Below, piece by piece: positions 1,547 through 11,443 of a DNA stretch of 64,000 nt (its first letter is position 1; each line of letters starts with the position of its first letter). The notes under the pieces were generated by a model. That model was given only the letters and a program-made list of their open reading frames with translations. It was not told where the DNA came from and searched no databases. This DNA is from an uncultured Anaerolineae bacterium (lineage in GTDB: Bacteria > Chloroflexota > Anaerolineae > JAFGEY01). Position numbers and translations under genes: made by a program. The stretch lies in contig CAYVBK010000012.1 in NCBI GenBank assembly GCA_964449465.1, positions 26,552 through 90,551 of the forward strand, written 5' to 3'.

Positions 1547-4450
1547 ATGGATCGTTCAGTCTTTCAAAACTATGTCCACCTGGTCGTAGAGCGACATGGC
1601 GCGCCTGCCCCGTCCGAGTTGCCGCGAGTCCAACGCGGGCCCGCTTTTGCCCAAAATGAATGGCGGCGCGAAAATGAAGCACTCACCCTGGCGCGCGGCC
1701 GTGTGGACGAAGAGCGGATTCTCGGTCACCTGAGTGTCATGTCGCAGATCGAGTTGATCTCTGGTTTGCCGCTGGGGGTGGCTCAACCACTCGACGAGGT
1801 CATCCAGATCGAGCCCAAACTGGTTCTACTCGGCGCTGGCGGCGCCGGCAAGACGGCTGCCCTGCGCGCCTTGCTCACGCATACCGCCGCCCAGGGCGAA
1901 TTGGTGGCGTGGATTTCGCTGCCCGATTTGATGGACAGTGTCGAATCGCTGCCCGAATACCTGTCCCAAGACGCCCAACGTCGGCTGTCTATCGAAATGC
2001 CCGCCGACGTATTTGCGCAAGCCCTGGTGAACGGCCACAGCCTGGTGTGCCTGGATGGGCTGGATGGTGTGGTCGGGCAGGCCGCGCGCTCCCAGGCGGT
2101 GCAACTCGTGCAAAAATGGGCCGAGCGATTCCCGCGCTGCCGCTTTGTGGTTGCGTGCCGCACTGATGGCGAGCAGCCCGACCTGGGTTCTCAGTTCGCC
2201 CGCTATTTTTTGACCGCGCCCCAGCATGCCGGCGACACCCTGCGCCAGGCCTGGAACGAATCGCTGGACAACTGGACGGCGGAACCCCGTCAGGCCAAAA
2301 ATTGCTACTATGCCTCCCGCCATCGCCTGTGGGCTATGCTGGCCCTGGCTATGTTGGAGCAAAACATCGCCGCCGCAACAACCGAGCAGGCCCAAGACTG
2401 GCTGGCCGCGGCCGCCGAGCGCGACAAGTCGCTCAAGCTCAACAAACGACAGGCGCATCACGAGGCCGAATTGCTCTTGAAAGAAAGCCCGGCACATCTC
2501 AAACTGCTGGCTCTGAGCAAAGACCTGATTTCATTCGAGCCGCGCCTGACTCGCGAGGTGCTGGCGGCCCAGGCCCTGGTGACGCGTGGCATCGAAAACG
2601 GCGTCGAAGCCATCTGGACGCGCCTCGCTTCACACCTGTGGGATGTCAACTGGCGCGAAACGCTGGCCCTGACCTTTCGATTCCTGGCCCAAGAGCAGCC
2701 GGCGCTGTGGAACGAACTGATCGCCCGCATCCTCACCCTGGCCGATCAAGACCCCCTCGAACTCAAACACCATCGCCATACCTTGCTGGCCGCCTCGCTG
2801 CTGGCCAGCAGCCCGGCATCGCCCGAATTGGAACAGACGCCCATCCTGGATCGGCTGATGGCCTGGTTGCACGACGCCACCGCTGCCGGACACCGGGATG
2901 CCTTGAACGTGCTGGCGCAGATGGAAGCGAATCCGGCGGCCTGGTCGGCCCTGTATGCACTGGCCCAAGAATCGGGGCTGAGTGTGGGCATCCAGGGCAG
3001 CGTGGCTTTGCTGCTCGGCCAACTGGGCATGTCATCTGCCAACGAGGCCGCCGATCTGCTGATCGGCTGGGCCGACAATGCCGACCTGCCCGATCTGGTG
3101 CGTCAATCGGCCGTCTACGGGCTGAGCCTGCTGGTTGGGCGCGGCGGCCCCGCCGATGTCATCGAACCCCGCCTGGTCGAATGGACACAGCACCCCGACC
3201 TGCGCCTGTATGTGCGCATCGATGCAGTCGAGGTGTTGGGGCGTGTGATCGCGCAGACACGCACTCCAGCCGCATTGGACGTTCTGATGGCTCTGGCGCA
3301 CGGGCAAAACGCCAAAGAAAAGAGCGTGCCGTTCTCCATCCAGGATGCCGCCGCCCGCGCCCTGCTGCAAGTTTGGGCCGCCACGCCAGATGAGGCGATG
3401 GATCAAGCCTTGTGGACGATGGCCCAAGACGAGCAGGTGCACGACAGCGTGCGCGTCTTGCTGGCCGAACCGCTGGGCCGCGCCGGTCACGCGGCCGAGA
3501 CGGCGCAAATCCTGTTGCGTCTGGGTCGCCAGGCCAGCACATTTGTGGGGCAGCAAGAATCTTTGCAGGCGTTGGCTCGGGTCGGTTATGCGGATCAGGA
3601 CATTTTGGACGGCCTCAAGGCAATGGCGCAAACCTCCGACCGCAGCATCAAGGATTTTGTGCGCCTGACCGCCGCTCATACACTGGGCCTGCTGGGCGAA
3701 CGCGACCTCTCGACCCAATATATCCTGCGTATATTGGCCGACAAGAGCATCTATCGCTCCACCCGCCTGGATGCCTTCAAGATCATCCATCAGATGGGAT
3801 GGACCGGCATCGCCGACCTGGATCAGGCCATGATCACGGTGCTGCGTGTATGGGCGCGCGAAGAAAACACCACCGAAGATGTGCGCGAGCAGGCGATGGA
3901 AATTTTGTCCTCGTTTGGGGTGGATCAAGAAGCCTTTGTGCAAGACCTGATCGCCAACCTGCAAAACAAGCGCGAATATACCCGTGTGCGTCGCGTGGCC
4001 GCCAAAGCATTGGGTGTTTTACCTGCCACATGGCAGCCGCAGGCCCGCGAAGCCCTGAACACCGAACTGTACGATCAGCAAGAAGGCAACGACAATCTGC
4101 GGGTGATGGTATCGCGCTCGCTGCTGCGTTTTGGCCCTGATGAAGTGGTCATCAAGTACCTTCAAGAAGCCACCGTCCAGTCGTACCTGGCCCTGGTACG
4201 CTATGAATCGTCACTCTACCTGGGCGAATACGGCCTGGTCGAGCCGGCCATTCCGGCCCTGATCGCCCTGATCCAGGACCCGCAAATCGTTGACACCATC
4301 CGTCAGGGTGCTCTGTATGCCCTAAGTCTGTGGGGCGGCGGTCGCCAGGAGGTAATTGACGCCGTCGCCGGAGTGTTCGATCAGCCTACCCTGGAGCCCA
4401 ACGTGCGTCACCAGGCCTATCAATGCCTCAAAACCGTTCTGTCTGCCTGA
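1547..4450 (+). CDS. NACHT-like (STAND) NTPase with long C-terminal HEAT-repeat region
   Basis: SD AAGGAG before the ATG. Walker A LVLLGAGGAGKT, Walker B region LVCLDGLDG, FVVACR strand, then many helical repeats (e.g. VRQSAVYGLSLL, VRIDAVEVLGRV, VRRVAAKALGVL). Confidence 0.78.
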   Translation: MDRSVFQNYVHLVVERHGAPAPSELPRVQRGPAFAQNEWRRENEALTLARGRVDEERILGHLSVMSQIELISGLPLGVAQPLDEVIQIEPKLVLLGAGGAGKTAALRALLTHTAAQGELVAWISLPDLMDSVESLPEYLSQDAQRRLSIEMPADVFAQALVNGHSLVCLDGLDGVVGQAARSQAVQLVQKWAERFPRCRFVVACRTDGEQPDLGSQFARYFLTAPQHAGDTLRQAWNESLDNWTAEPRQAKNCYYASRHRLWAMLALAMLEQNIAAATTEQAQDWLAAAAERDKSLKLNKRQAHHEAELLLKESPAHLKLLALSKDLISFEPRLTREVLAAQALVTRGIENGVEAIWTRLASHLWDVNWRETLALTFRFLAQEQPALWNELIARILTLADQDPLELKHHRHTLLAASLLASSPASPELEQTPILDRLMAWLHDATAAGHRDALNVLAQMEANPAAWSALYALAQESGLSVGIQGSVALLLGQLGMSSANEAADLLIGWADNADLPDLVRQSAVYGLSLLVGRGGPADVIEPRLVEWTQHPDLRLYVRIDAVEVLGRVIAQTRTPAALDVLMALAHGQNAKEKSVPFSIQDAAARALLQVWAATPDEAMDQALWTMAQDEQVHDSVRVLLAEPLGRAGHAAETAQILLRLGRQASTFVGQQESLQALARVGYADQDILDGLKAMAQTSDRSIKDFVRLTAAHTLGLLGERDLSTQYILRILADKSIYRSTRLDAFKIIHQMGWTGIADLDQAMITVLRVWAREENTTEDVREQAMEILSSFGVDQEAFVQDLIANLQNKREYTRVRRVAAKALGVLPATWQPQAREALNTELYDQQEGNDNLRVMVSRSLLRFGPDEVVIKYLQEATVQSYLALVRYESSLYLGEYGLVEPAIPALIALIQDPQIVDTIRQGALYALSLWGGGRQEVIDAVAGVFDQPTLEPNVRHQAYQCLKTVLSA

Positions 4451-4472
4451 TCGGTGCGATGAAAGCCGTGCG

Positions 4473-6641
4473 ATGGGCAACATCCTGATCGTGGTCGAGT
4501 CCCCGGCCAAAGCTAAAACCATCGCCGGTATGGGCGGTTGGCCGGTCGGTTCACCAGGTGAACCGACCGGTCGGCCGCGCCTGGTCGCCTCGATGGGCCA
4601 CGTGCGCGACCTGCCGCACAAGAGCATCGGCATAGACGTTCAAGACGGATTTCGCCCACACTATGTTACCGCGCCGGGCAAACAAAAGACCATCCACAAA
4701 CTTCAAGAGGCTGCTCAGGGCGTCCAGGCCGTCTACCTGGCCACCGATCCGGATCGCGAGGGCGAGGCCATCGCCTGGCACGTGCTGCAAGTGCTGCGCC
4801 AGGCCCTGCCCAAAGGAACGCCAGTTTATCGCATCACCTTTCACGAGATCACGGCGACGGCGGTCAGGCTGGCTTTTGAACACGCCGGCCCGTTGAACCT
4901 GGCTCTGGTCGAAGCGCAGCAAGCCCGACGCATCCTGGATCGGCTGGTGGGCTATTACATCAGCCCGTTGCTGTGGAAGCACGTGCGCGGCGGGCGCGGC
5001 CTGTCAGCGGGGCGGGTGCAGACGGTGGCCCTGCGCCTGGTGGTAGACCGTGAGCGCGAGATTCAGGCCTTTGTGCCGGTCGAGTATTGGAGCATCGAGG
5101 CCGAATTGCAGCAACAAATGCGCAGCCCCATCAACCCGCTGGGGCTGACAGAGCCGCTCAAGCCAACGCCATTTCGCGCTCAATTGTGGCGCATTGCCGA
5201 CGCGCAGGGACAGCTTCAAGAGCCAGACCTGAAAAACCGCGCCGACGCCGATGCGGTGGTGCAGGCTCTGGACCAGGCTATGTACTGGATTGACCGGGTG
5301 GAGCAGGAACGCAAACCGCGCTACCCCCCACCGCCATTCATCACCAGCACCTTGCAACAGGCGGCCTCTCAGGTTTGTGGCTTTCCACCCAAATTGACGA
5401 TGCAGATCGCTCAACAACTCTATGAGGGAGTTCCTTTGAACGGACAGAGCGGCGCCGTAGGGCTGATCACCTATATGCGCACCGACTCGCCCCATGTCGC
5501 CCCCGAAGCGCAGACCGCCGCCCGTGAGGCCATCCTCAAGTTTTGGGGCCAAGCCTATCTGCCGGCCGCGCCGCCCACCTACACCGCCCGCGTCAAATCG
5601 GCCCAAGAAGCGCACGAGGCCATCCGTCCCACCGACCCGCACCGCACCCCCAAACAGGTCAAACCCGACCTGGACGACAGGCAATACAAACTGTACGAGC
5701 TGATTTGGCGGCGATTCATTGCCAGCCAGATGAAACCGGCTCTGTACGACCTGACCACCGCCTATATCCCCACAGCACCGGCGGCGCCGCCTGCCCCCGA
5801 CGCCCGTTTACATCCCAACCGCCTGCCCTTTGTGTTTCGCGCCCAGGGGCGTGTGTGCGCCTTTGACGGTTTTCTAAAGGTATACAAAGAATTGGGTGAG
5901 GCCGGCGACGCAGCCGAAGCAGAAACCCGCCTGCCACCGCTCACGCCCGGCGAGTGGCTGGAATTGCTCCGATTGATTCCCGAACAGCATTGGACCCGCC
6001 CGCCGTCACGCTATACCGAGTCATCGCTGATCAAGGAACTGGAGCGACGCGGCATCGGGCGGCCTTCCACCTTTGCCAGCATGGTGGCAATCATCCAGGA
6101 GCGCGATTATGTGCGTCGCCAACTCAAATTCCTCGTCCCCACCGAACTGGGCATGGCCGTCTGCGACATGCTGGTGGCCGCCTTTGCCAACCTGTTCGAC
6201 TATGACTTTACGGCGCGCATGGAAGATCAACTGGACGAGATTGCCAACGGCCCTGTCCAGACGGCGCAGCAGCAACGGTTGGACATGCTGGCGCGGTTTT
6301 GGGCCGAATTATCGCCGGCGGTAGAGCGGGCGCAGGCCGATATGCCCCAGGTGCGCATCGAGCCGGACAAGCCGCAGCCCACCGGTCAGACCTGCCCCCA
6401 ATGTGGCAGCGAACTGGTTCGGCGCAGAGGCAAACACGGCTATTTTGTCGGCTGCACCAGCTATCCTCAATGCAAGTATATCCAGAAAAAGACAGAGAAA
6501 TCGGCGCAGCCTTCCGGTCGCGCCTGCCCGCTGTGCAGCGGCGAGTTGGTGCTACGGCGCAGCAAACGAGGGCCATTTCTGGGATGCAGCCACTATCCCA
6601 CTTGCAAACACACCGAGCCGCTCGATCAAAAACCTGCCTGA
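4473..6641 (+). CDS. topA: DNA topoisomerase I (type IA)
   Basis: True start is ATG 4473 (MGNILIVVESPAKAKT). Toprim ATDPDREGE, LSAGRVQ, catalytic GLITYMRTDS, AQEAHEAIRPT, GIGRPST and two C-terminal C4 zinc ribbons. Confidence 0.97.
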   Translation: MGNILIVVESPAKAKTIAGMGGWPVGSPGEPTGRPRLVASMGHVRDLPHKSIGIDVQDGFRPHYVTAPGKQKTIHKLQEAAQGVQAVYLATDPDREGEAIAWHVLQVLRQALPKGTPVYRITFHEITATAVRLAFEHAGPLNLALVEAQQARRILDRLVGYYISPLLWKHVRGGRGLSAGRVQTVALRLVVDREREIQAFVPVEYWSIEAELQQQMRSPINPLGLTEPLKPTPFRAQLWRIADAQGQLQEPDLKNRADADAVVQALDQAMYWIDRVEQERKPRYPPPPFITSTLQQAASQVCGFPPKLTMQIAQQLYEGVPLNGQSGAVGLITYMRTDSPHVAPEAQTAAREAILKFWGQAYLPAAPPTYTARVKSAQEAHEAIRPTDPHRTPKQVKPDLDDRQYKLYELIWRRFIASQMKPALYDLTTAYIPTAPAAPPAPDARLHPNRLPFVFRAQGRVCAFDGFLKVYKELGEAGDAAEAETRLPPLTPGEWLELLRLIPEQHWTRPPSRYTESSLIKELERRGIGRPSTFASMVAIIQERDYVRRQLKFLVPTELGMAVCDMLVAAFANLFDYDFTARMEDQLDEIANGPVQTAQQQRLDMLARFWAELSPAVERAQADMPQVRIEPDKPQPTGQTCPQCGSELVRRRGKHGYFVGCTSYPQCKYIQKKTEKSAQPSGRACPLCSGELVLRRSKRGPFLGCSHYPTCKHTEPLDQKPA
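4534..4578 (+). repeat. 45-nt palindromic element in frame inside topA
   Basis: CCGGTCGGTTCACC-A-GGTGAACCGACCGG (4542-4570) is a perfect 14-bp inverted repeat. It extends to 22 bp with three G-U pairs. Confidence 0.9.
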
Positions 6642-8881
6642 TCCGGCGACGATGACAACAGCCGCATGCCGTTCAACGTCACCAACACCGAAGCTCCCGT
6701 ATCGGCCAGCACAGCCATCCACAAGGTGGCCCAGCCGCCCAACGCCAGCAGCACAAAAACTGCTTTGACAGCCAGACTAAAAGCGATGTTTTGTTGAATC
6801 ACCTGCCGGGCGCGGCGACTGGTGCGCACAGCATCGGCCAGGTGATTCAGATCGTCTTGCATCAAAACCACGTCGGCGGTCTCCATCGCCTGGGCTGTGC
6901 CGGCACCGCCCATAGCGATGCCCACCTGCGCCGCCGCCAGAGCCGGCGCGTCATTCACCCCATCGCCGATCATGGCCACCTCGCCCCGTTCGCGCTGCAA
7001 AGCCTGCACGGCAGACAGCTTGTCACCGGGCAGCAGGCCGGCGCGCACCTCGTCTATCGCGCCAATCTGATCGGCCACGCGCTGCGCCGCCGCTGCATGA
7101 TCGCCGGTCAGCATAACCACATGAGCACCCGGCACGGCCTGCTTGAGATGGCGCAAGGCCGCCGCGCTGGAGGAGCGCGGCGCATCGGCCAGGCCCACAA
7201 AGCCGACCAGGTGATTGTCTTTGCCGACCATGATCACCGTATAGCCGTCATCTTGGGCCGCCCACGCCTGCTGATGAAAGACGGCGCACTCGGCCTGCCG
7301 CTGATGAAACAGGGCATGGCTGCCGACAGTGATGGTGTGATCGCCCAACACCCCTTCGACCCCCTGCCCCGCCAAGGCCTGCACATCGACGGCGGCCGGG
7401 TATCGGTGCAGCACATTGCGATGAGTGGCCTGCGCCAAAATAGCCTGCGCCAGCGGATGCTCGGAGCGTCGCTCGACGGCGGCGGCCAACGCCAGCATCT
7501 CGTCGCAAGAGGCACAATCCATGGGTATATCGGGCTGATGCAGAGCCGGACACTCTAGCGAGCGGGTGATCTGCACTGTCGGCCGACCGCGCGTGAGCGT
7601 GCCGGTCTTGTCCAGGGCAAAGGTCTTGATTCGCGCCAGCGTGTCCAAAAACGCCCCGCCCTTGATCAACACCCCACGCCGGGCCAGGGCAGTCATGGCG
7701 CTGACCATCGTCACCGGCGTGCTGATCACCAGAGCGCAGGGGCAACTGATCAGCAGCAGCGACAGAGCGCGATAGATCCAGCCGCGCTCACCACCCACAT
7801 CGAACCAGGGCGCACCCCACAGCAGCGGCGGAAGGCAGGCCACCAGAATCGCCGTCAAGACGGCCGCCGGCGTATACCAACGCGCAAAGCGGTCTATGAA
7901 CCGTTCGACAGGAGCGCGCTGTGCCTGCGCCTGCTCGACCAGACGCACAATGCGACCGATGATCGAATCTCCGGCCGGGCGGGTAGCCTGCACCTGAATG
8001 GCTGCCTGGCCGTTGATCGTGCCGCCAAACACCTCATCGCCGACAGTGCGCGACACCGGCATACTTTCGCCCGTCACCGGGGCCTGGTTGATCAGCGACA
8101 CGCCGGCCACGATGCGCCCGTCTACCGGAATGTTTTCGCCGGGGCGCACCAACACCGTTTCCCCCACCTGCACCTGCTCCACATCCACAACCTGCTCGTG
8201 CGGCGGACAAAAAGGACAGGGCCCGCCGGTATAACCATCTCGCCCCAAATGCCCGGCGCAATCCATGCACGGACGCAGCACCGTCGCTCGGTTGGGGCGC
8301 CAAGATAGCAGACTGCGCAGCGAATCGCGCGCCCGCTCGCCGGTATATCGCTCAATGGCCTGAGCGACGGCAAATAGCAGCATCGAACTAGCCGCTTCGC
8401 CGGCTTCGCCGATCCACACCGCTCCCAATGCGGCCAGGGTCATCAGCAACTCGATGGTCACCTGCCGCCCTTTGATCAGAGAACGCGCCCCGCGCCAGGC
8501 CACCGGATAGCCGGCCAGGATCATGGCCCCAATCTGCGCGCCCGGAACAGCCCAGAACGGAACAGACGGCAGAACCGTCAGGATCAGGCTGAGACCGAAC
8601 AAGGCCGCACCGCACCGGGCCAGCGCGACAGCCGGCTCAACTCGCCGCGAACGCACCATCAGGCCGGCATCATCCCGGTCGCTCTGAGCCACCTGATAGC
8701 CCAAATCGCGCACACGCTGTATCACCAACTGCTCATCGGCCGCGCCGACCGCTTCCAGCACGGCGGTGGTAAAATTGACCTGGACGCGCTCGATGCCCGG
8801 CAATTGGGCCACGCTGCGCTCGATGGTCAGAGCGCAGTTGGCGCAGTCCATCCCTTGAATTTTCAAATGAACGGTTTTCAT
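6626..8881 (-). CDS. zntA: Heavy-metal-translocating P1B-type ATPase, Zn/Cd/Pb (P1B-2) type
   Basis: N-terminal GMDCANC, TGES, SCPC, DKTGTLT, SEHPLA, GDGVND, plus Lys in TM7 and LADTG in TM8. Confidence 0.92.
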   Translation of the reverse strand: MKTVHLKIQGMDCANCALTIERSVAQLPGIERVQVNFTTAVLEAVGAADEQLVIQRVRDLGYQVAQSDRDDAGLMVRSRRVEPAVALARCGAALFGLSLILTVLPSVPFWAVPGAQIGAMILAGYPVAWRGARSLIKGRQVTIELLMTLAALGAVWIGEAGEAASSMLLFAVAQAIERYTGERARDSLRSLLSWRPNRATVLRPCMDCAGHLGRDGYTGGPCPFCPPHEQVVDVEQVQVGETVLVRPGENIPVDGRIVAGVSLINQAPVTGESMPVSRTVGDEVFGGTINGQAAIQVQATRPAGDSIIGRIVRLVEQAQAQRAPVERFIDRFARWYTPAAVLTAILVACLPPLLWGAPWFDVGGERGWIYRALSLLLISCPCALVISTPVTMVSAMTALARRGVLIKGGAFLDTLARIKTFALDKTGTLTRGRPTVQITRSLECPALHQPDIPMDCASCDEMLALAAAVERRSEHPLAQAILAQATHRNVLHRYPAAVDVQALAGQGVEGVLGDHTITVGSHALFHQRQAECAVFHQQAWAAQDDGYTVIMVGKDNHLVGFVGLADAPRSSSAAALRHLKQAVPGAHVVMLTGDHAAAAQRVADQIGAIDEVRAGLLPGDKLSAVQALQRERGEVAMIGDGVNDAPALAAAQVGIAMGGAGTAQAMETADVVLMQDDLNHLADAVRTSRRARQVIQQNIAFSLAVKAVFVLLALGGWATLWMAVLADTGASVLVTLNGMRLLSSSPDQAGF

Positions 8882-11321: not shown

Positions 11322-11443
11322 CTTTTCATCCATTGCCATACGCGTTGGTTGAGTTTATCGAAACCAACGTTTTGCACAAGCCTGGAGATCAAAAAACGGC
11401 TCAATGGCGCCATTGAGCCGTTTTTTATTGATCCATACCGTTT

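Follow-up and report, generated by a model that had tools for sequence, protein, structure and literature searches.

Rickettsia palindromic elements (RPEs), which measure ~150 bp and fall into about ten families, occupy dozens of loci per genome (PMC10969869), and in the mitochondrial genes of Nematomorpha numerous perfect inverted repeats of up to 284 bp lie in coding sequence with both arms translated (PMC6649704). Template-switch mutations create perfect stems and RNA hairpins in one event (PMC8794818, PMC5453318) and are known at quasi-palindromes such as those of the GCGG...CCGC type (PMC5941160, PMC8794818); their effects on proteins and coding sequence have been described in yeast (PMC8604942). 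Here we analyze a palindrome translated in frame within topA, the gene for a type IA DNA topoisomerase I, in a 64,000-nucleotide stretch (the window, to which unprefixed coordinates refer) of contig CAYVBK010000012.1 from an uncultured Anaerolineae bacterium (assembly GCA_964449465.1). An earlier reading of the letters alone, hereafter the original prediction, had taken this palindrome for an RPE-like selfish element accommodated in a surface loop of the enzyme. Our comparisons indicate a lineage-specific 30-nt insertion, for which a de novo mutation through a template switch, rather than a mobile element, is a somewhat probable origin. The features at the locus are as follows.

Window 4473-6641, + strand: topA, type IA DNA topoisomerase I, 722 aa (from translation, Pfam domains, alignment and an AlphaFold model).
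Window 4534-4578, + strand: extended 45-nt hairpin GCGGTTGGCCGGTCGGTTCACC-A-GGTGAACCGACCGGTCGGCCGC (from folds and pairing read from the sequence).
Window 4539-4568, + strand: 30-nt (10-codon) insertion, W23-T32 (WPVGSPGEPT), lineage-specific as judged by tblastn, MAFFT, a loop-length survey and the 6ozw alignment.
Window 4542-4570, no strand: perfect palindrome CCGGTCGGTTCACC-A-GGTGAACCGACCGG, 14+1+14 (29 nt), with a 1-nt centre within CCAGG.
Window 4563-4574, no strand: nested 12-nt perfect palindrome CCGACC|GGTCGG, overlapping the right arm (read from the sequence).

The N-terminal region of TopA was compared with that of its relatives at three depths. TopA was located in 40 related genomes, and the N-termini were aligned for the 29 relatives with retrieved loci (tblastn, MAFFT), including the same-genus genomes G001 and G002 at 68-71% identity. 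Exactly ten residues are missing from all 29 (AGMGG[WPVGSPGEPT]GRPRLV compared with, e.g., AGILG-SGYRVL), the DNA alignment with relatives has a 30-nt gap at the insert, and the spacing between the KAKT and ASMGH motifs is 22 residues in the window's TopA against 12 in every relative. Among the best 120 matches from a database of 5.8 billion proteins, the canonical loop length is found in 93/93 motif-matched sequences and the additional ten residues only in the query; the rest are N-terminally truncated or carry the same loop with a variant motif. Those matches that bear a name are annotated as Anaerolineae bacterium, which points to a Chloroflexota-like organism. The alignment with the PDB chain 6ozw contains the same clean 10-aa gap. 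The limits 4539-4568 are set by these alignments and may slide by a few bases. Judged from the alignments, the insertion is derived, restricted to a species-level lineage, and created a perfect inverted repeat. The loop of 22 rather than ~12 residues that had been pointed out in the original prediction is thus borne out by a 10-aa gap in 29/29 relatives and 93/93 alignable homologues, and the alignment of close TopA sequences that it had proposed indicates that orthologues do not share this loop length and that the palindrome is a genuine in-frame insertion.

The palindrome itself has the geometry that had been described, namely a 45-nt hairpin (4534-4578) with a 14-bp perfect core centred on CCAGG (14+1+14, 4542-4570), and in a shuffle control 0/100 shuffles matched the 14+1+14 core. 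The outer eight positions of the hairpin form five Watson-Crick and three G·T pairs, all three of the latter being G·U-compatible on the sense strand, and reach codons whose residues, G21/G22 and R34-R36, align with ancestral ones. The sense RNA is predicted to fold into a continuous 21-bp helix of -47.6 kcal/mol (z = -6.0); the predicted energies are -35.1 kcal/mol for the antisense RNA and -24.8 for the sense DNA. In frame within topA, the palindrome encodes the peptide G22-W-P-V-G-S-P-G-E-P-T-G-R-P. The opposite-strand peptide PVGSPGEPTG that had also been reported is indeed present, in the minus-strand open reading frame (ORF) 4322-4633, which reads RPVGSPGEPTG, and it is a trivial consequence of the palindrome's symmetry. 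The nested CCGACC|GGTCGG may have been left over from an earlier step.

The host protein conforms to type IA topoisomerase I in its sequence, with the expected catalytic residues and tyrosine and with the domains Toprim, Topoisom_bac and Zn_ribbon_Top1 (PF01751, PF01131, PF01396; precomputed), the C-terminus carrying two zinc-ribbon motifs. In a 60-sequence alignment, the Toprim acidic residues E9, D92, D94 and E96 (DxDxE) and the catalytic Y317 are invariant, and the PDB matches 6pcm, 6ozw and 5d5h reach E≈1e-37. An AlphaFold2 model built from 60 homologues (mean predicted local distance difference test score, pLDDT, 89.2; predicted template modelling score, pTM, 0.84) is confident outside the insert; residues 21-30 (mean pLDDT 55) lie in a predicted coil that separates helix 11-19 from strand 36-39 in the Toprim domain. 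The ten-residue insert seems to fall in a flexible turn where helix 1 of this domain leads into strand 2, and TopA with its insert looks functional, the catalytic residues appearing intact. Both the surface-loop placement in the original prediction and the loop modelling that it had recommended accord with this predicted low-confidence coil (pLDDT ~55 at the insert).

A selfish repeat would be expected to have copies, and these were sought in the host genome (G000: 5.3 Mb, 98% complete, 89 contigs) and beyond. Across the 5.3-Mb genome, the 17-nt core matches only itself with up to one mismatch, blastn-short against the genome returns no other match longer than 13 nt, and in a Hamming scan of the genome the next best 29-mer is seven mismatches away, which is chance level. 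In a collection of 185,579 species (one genome each), the 21-nt core has no match, the 19-nt core has 19 scattered single matches in unrelated phyla, about the chance expectation, and no repeat family of the palindrome occurs in any of these genomes. The 21-nt core does match five metagenome contigs, all at unrelated loci: four contigs carry one and the same gene for GSPGEP-type repeats, with C/G at the centre, and the fifth (L034) has a distinct hairpin and comes from a different organism. Rfam returned only generic hairpins below threshold (Atu_L6, 26 bits against a gathering score of 100; mir-341, 25 against 90), and a terminator and promoter scan of window 4250-4850 detected nothing.

The search for further copies of the 45-mer, which the original prediction had called for, thus came back empty. 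As expected of RPE-like or miniature inverted-repeat transposable element (MITE)-like repeats, the topA element is an in-frame insertion in an intact conserved protein. It departs from them in being single-copy in its genome, in having no family in other genomes (the 185,579 species genomes and the metagenome contigs), and in its size of 30 nt instead of ~100-150 bp with a conserved peptide. Nor does it conform to repetitive extragenic palindromic (REP) sequences with their REP-associated tyrosine transposases (RAYT): it has no GTAG head, is single-copy and intragenic, and the true GTAG family of the genome differs in sequence. On these sequence comparisons, topA offers no support for an RPE-like reading, its element being single-copy, 30 nt long (against ~150 bp), without a family and outside the three multi-copy palindrome families of its own genome. 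The original prediction had named two observations that would speak against it; one was made, since the 45-mer is single-copy, and the other was not, since orthologues do not share the loop.

The remaining palindromes of the same genome provide a frame for interpreting this one. Of the 216 perfect palindromes counted across the genome (arms ≥12, loop ≤6), most are A/T-flanked terminator-like hairpins or members of three multi-copy families, to none of which the topA palindrome belongs.

Multi-copy family 1: GTAGAGACGCAA..TTGCGTCTCTAC, GTAG-led, REP-like.
Multi-copy family 2: AGACCTGNCAGGTTT..AAACCTGNCAGGTCT, REP-like, ~15 loci.
Multi-copy family 3: AGCCCGACGCT..AGCGTCGGGCT, from the genome palindrome census.

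Long perfect palindromes in credible genes were then compared with same-genus and same-family orthologues, which yielded four in-frame gains in other genes of the genome (contigs are given as C numbers).

C28:14478-14506 (L039): nadC-like gene, 14+1+14, +15 nt in frame, lineage-specific (relatives AVERVRA-----HN).
C51:22146-22172 (L063): glycosyltransferase gene, 13+1+13, +12 nt in frame, lineage-specific.
C2:51493-51522 (L071): BcrAD-like ATPase gene, 14+2+14, +9 nt in frame, lineage-specific.
C75:9049-9082 (L079, about 1870-1905): helicase-like gene, 15+4+15, +30 nt in frame against a 91%-identical same-genus orthologue.

In the nadC-like gene, the new arm reverse-complements a conserved arm upstream of it (ERVRAH|IVRPH); one relative already has a short quasi-palindrome, GCGCAT-AAT-GTGC, at this site. 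The inserts of the glycosyltransferase gene, GCGAACCTCGCC, and of the BcrAD-like gene, ATTTCGGCC, each match exactly the reverse complement of the bases just before them, GGCGAGGTTCGC and GGCCGAAAT, respectively. In all three genes the gained bases reverse-complement ancestral bases next to them, a pattern that marks template switching. The helicase-like gene is of another sort: its 34-nt palindrome AGACCTGACAGGTTTTCCGAAACCTGTCAGGTCT, with the inserted peptide QDLTGFPKPVRS, is a member of the ~15-locus AGACCTGNCAGG family, in which the central N covaries between the arms, and this membership makes it a true coding insertion of the RPE/REP-like sort, in a Chloroflexota-type genome. The general idea of the original prediction, though unsupported for topA, holds on another contig, in the helicase-like gene with its in-frame member of a ~15-locus REP-like family. 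Palindromes enter proteins in this organism by two routes, inverted duplication by template switching and insertion of repeat-family hairpins. Loops span 2-6 nt in the multi-copy families, 1, 1 and 2 nt in the de novo cases, and 1 nt in topA.

Three further candidates were set aside. The CbiQ-like palindrome at C19:51260 (13+1+13) is accompanied by no indel and is a chance case arising from QAQLLRL codons; the GTAG REP-like palindrome in an HsdM-like gene (C61:4679) is not a clean insertion, the only good orthologue being similar in length; and the palindrome at C25:23073 was dropped, as the covering ORF looks non-coding. In a mirror-repeat control, inverted repeats within ORFs show no excess at arms ≥11 (22 against 23 mirror repeats) and a modest one at arms ≥13 (about 7-8 against 1-3), so no unusual rate is claimed for the genome as a whole. 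Three matches to Y1_Tnp (PF01797) above cut-off, on C41, C43 and C10, provide the transposase expected of a RAYT system; they bear on the other repeats of the genome and not on topA.

A plausible origin for the topA palindrome begins with a short inverted repeat, GCGG...CCGC, that would already have been present among the loop codons of topA. There, during replication or repair in this lineage, the nascent strand would have taken the opposite strand as its template and copied it, producing a perfect inverted repeat. In an essential gene only in-frame products would survive, and ten Gly/Pro/Ser-rich residues in a flexible Toprim turn could have been tolerated and fixed. Because neither arm is present in relatives, the process in topA would probably have taken two steps (~+15 nt each) or started from a short seed sequence. 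We infer both the number of steps and, by analogy with the three clean cases, a shared process. The topA stem is coaxial with the short inverted repeat GCGG...CCGC in codons that align with ancestral residues, and the de novo route is further suggested by the orphan sequence and the 1-nt centre, which are common to the clean inverted duplications. The insert lengths of 30, 15, 12 and 9 nt are all multiples of three, as expected of real mutations filtered by selection. When a source arm was sought in topA, alignment with ancestral codons was limited to the outer GCGG/CCGC pairs, with GGTGAA (G-E) as a possible addition; the nested palindrome and the possible match of G29-E30 to the G-E of G001 (GGILGGEYRVV) would be compatible with two events of ~15 nt.

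Several observations weigh against template switching at this locus. Both topA arms (30 nt) are absent from relatives, whereas one arm is ancestral in each of the three clean cases; a single classical template switch, which adds one arm, is therefore insufficient. The REP-like insertion in the helicase-like gene likewise adds a net 30 nt. No donor for either arm was found nearby or elsewhere in the genome by blastn-short or the Hamming scan, and the nearest sampled relatives are ~70% identical, so that an intermediate allele is lacking. A duplication combined with an inversion (X-X'-X) was tried for the 45-mer and rejected, as the sole direct repeat, CCGGTCGG, has a 25-nt period and breaks the frame.

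The same gain of two new arms could instead reflect an orphan REP/RPE-like mobile hairpin of ~30 nt, moved in trans (e.g., by a Y1/RAYT-type transposase) and inserted in frame into topA, its kin lost or unsampled. The 30-nt gain would then parallel that of the AGACCTGNCAGGTTT..AAACCTGNCAGGTCT member at C75:9049-9082, and the genome indeed holds three palindromic repeat families together with the three Y1_Tnp (PF01797) matches. However, the palindrome is single-copy (the next 29-mer, at seven mismatches, being chance level), is without a family in the 185,579 species genomes or the metagenome contigs, lacks a GTAG head, has a 1-nt centre against the 2-6-nt loops of the genome's repeat families, and shows no target-site duplication that fits a 30-nt gain, CCGGTCGG with its 25-nt period being the only direct repeat. 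We therefore regard this origin as rather unlikely. A proposal that concerns retention is that the hairpin serves as a cis element tuning topA, either as an mRNA stem ~60 nt into the ORF or as a DNA cruciform or operator, one form of the idea being supercoiling-dependent control. It would account for the intact symmetry of a palindrome open to erosion by synonymous change, for three non-Watson-Crick pairs that are all G·U on the sense strand (-47.6 kcal/mol for sense against -35.1 for antisense), and for a stem that continues coaxially into ancestral codons. Yet a recent origin accounts for the perfect symmetry equally well, and 3/3 G·U pairs reach only p≈0.125 under random transitions; the element is absent from every orthologue, leaving nothing for conservation or covariation testing, has no Rfam match (26 bits against gathering scores of 90-100), and coincides with no terminator-like or promoter-like site in the scan of 4250-4850. 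We consider such a role improbable, with a slim chance at best.

That the palindrome is an artefact, i.e., a fold-back chimera from assembly or library preparation that is absent from the organism, is highly improbable. The source is a short-read metagenome-assembled genome of 89 contigs with 7.9% contamination, which would allow for such an error. However, the exact TopA protein is found on five contigs of a public collection, and Logan assemblies of the runs ERR4534291 and ERR4510095 match the window at 100% identity along 8.2 and 5.2 kb, respectively, with the palindrome included and unique flanks on either side; as two independent assemblies carry the insert, it is not an artefact of one assembly. 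The palindrome is interior to a 122-kb contig, away from the ends, and the insert and the three other palindromic insertions are all in frame, for which chance gives (1/3)^4. Template switching remains the favored origin. The two-arm structure and the G·U pairing on the sense strand nevertheless give a low probability that the palindrome is more than a neutral scar. It would then be either the sole copy yet sampled from an undescribed class of ~30-nt mobile elements inserting in frame, comparable to the 10-codon insertion in the helicase-like gene, or a retained hairpin or cruciform within topA that acts in cis and ties topA expression to DNA supercoiling.

Some further palindromes and neighboring features were recorded along the way. 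In the helicase-like gene, a second lineage-specific 18-nt in-frame insertion (GRGDGIHR) lies ~160 nt upstream of the palindrome (L079, about 1765-1785) and holds a 6-bp inverted repeat, GCGATG..CATCGC. REP-like units of the form GTAGAGACGCAA-N4-TTGCGTCTCTAC cluster at C61:4679-6962, with tandem arrays of 29-nt period at 6192-6300, 6625-6680 and 6906-6962, and one C61 copy lies in frame (VETQHIASL) inside the HsdM-like methylase ORF. A third family, (CTCTTT)CAGCCCGACGCT-N3-AGCGTCGGGCTG(AAAGAG), occupies about 15 loci. Terminator-like palindromes with the arm core AAACCAGGTTT / AAACCTGGTTT, whose sequence includes a CCWGG site, and with A- and T-run flanks occur on many contigs (e.g., C10:11768, C51:25494, C2:32408 and C19:17773). 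Within the window, the following features were noted.

Window 6626-6641: 16-nt overlap of the topA stop region with the 3' end of a convergent P-type ATPase ORF.
Window 6626-8881, - strand: heavy-metal P-type ATPase ORF with HMA, E1-E2_ATPase and Hydrolase domains.
Window 11391-11426: 18+18 perfect palindrome AAAAAACGGCTCAATGGC|GCCATTGAGCCGTTTTTT with A6/T6 flanks, which looks like a bidirectional intrinsic terminator.

The topA locus provides a natural example in which a replication error would have added a hairpin and ten residues to an essential, highly conserved enzyme without destroying it. Together with the three inverted duplications and the one REP-like insertion, it points to two separate routes from palindrome to protein in a Chloroflexota-type bacterium, and may serve as a worked example for studies of template-switch mutagenesis and of protein loop evolution. 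It also cautions that a translated palindrome is not automatically a selfish element.

Among the described systems, RPEs resemble the topA element in being palindromic DNA translated in frame in conserved functional proteins and tolerated in surface regions; they differ in being ~150-bp multi-copy elements, against 30 nt in a single copy, and the insertion in the helicase-like gene (C75:9049-9082) is their closer analogue. REP/RAYT elements are GC-rich hairpins of 20-40 nt, and this genome has both GTAG-led REP-like families and Y1_Tnp homologues, whereas the topA palindrome is perfect, intragenic and unrepeated, with a 1-nt centre and no GTAG head. The Nematomorpha palindromes likewise lie in coding sequence, topA differing as a single 29-nt case on a bacterial chromosome. 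Template-switch mutations, in the terms of Ripley and Lovett or of the four-point model of Löytynoja, share with topA a lineage-specific perfect inverted repeat, formed next to existing sequence, and may likewise add bases. Their textbook pattern is seen in three other genes here, and topA differs in that neither arm is ancestral. Documented cases come mostly from eukaryotes, rRNA and laboratory E. coli reporters, whereas topA presents an in-frame insertion in an essential bacterial gene. The topA insert thus represents no new kind of system and is a further instance of a known mutational kind.

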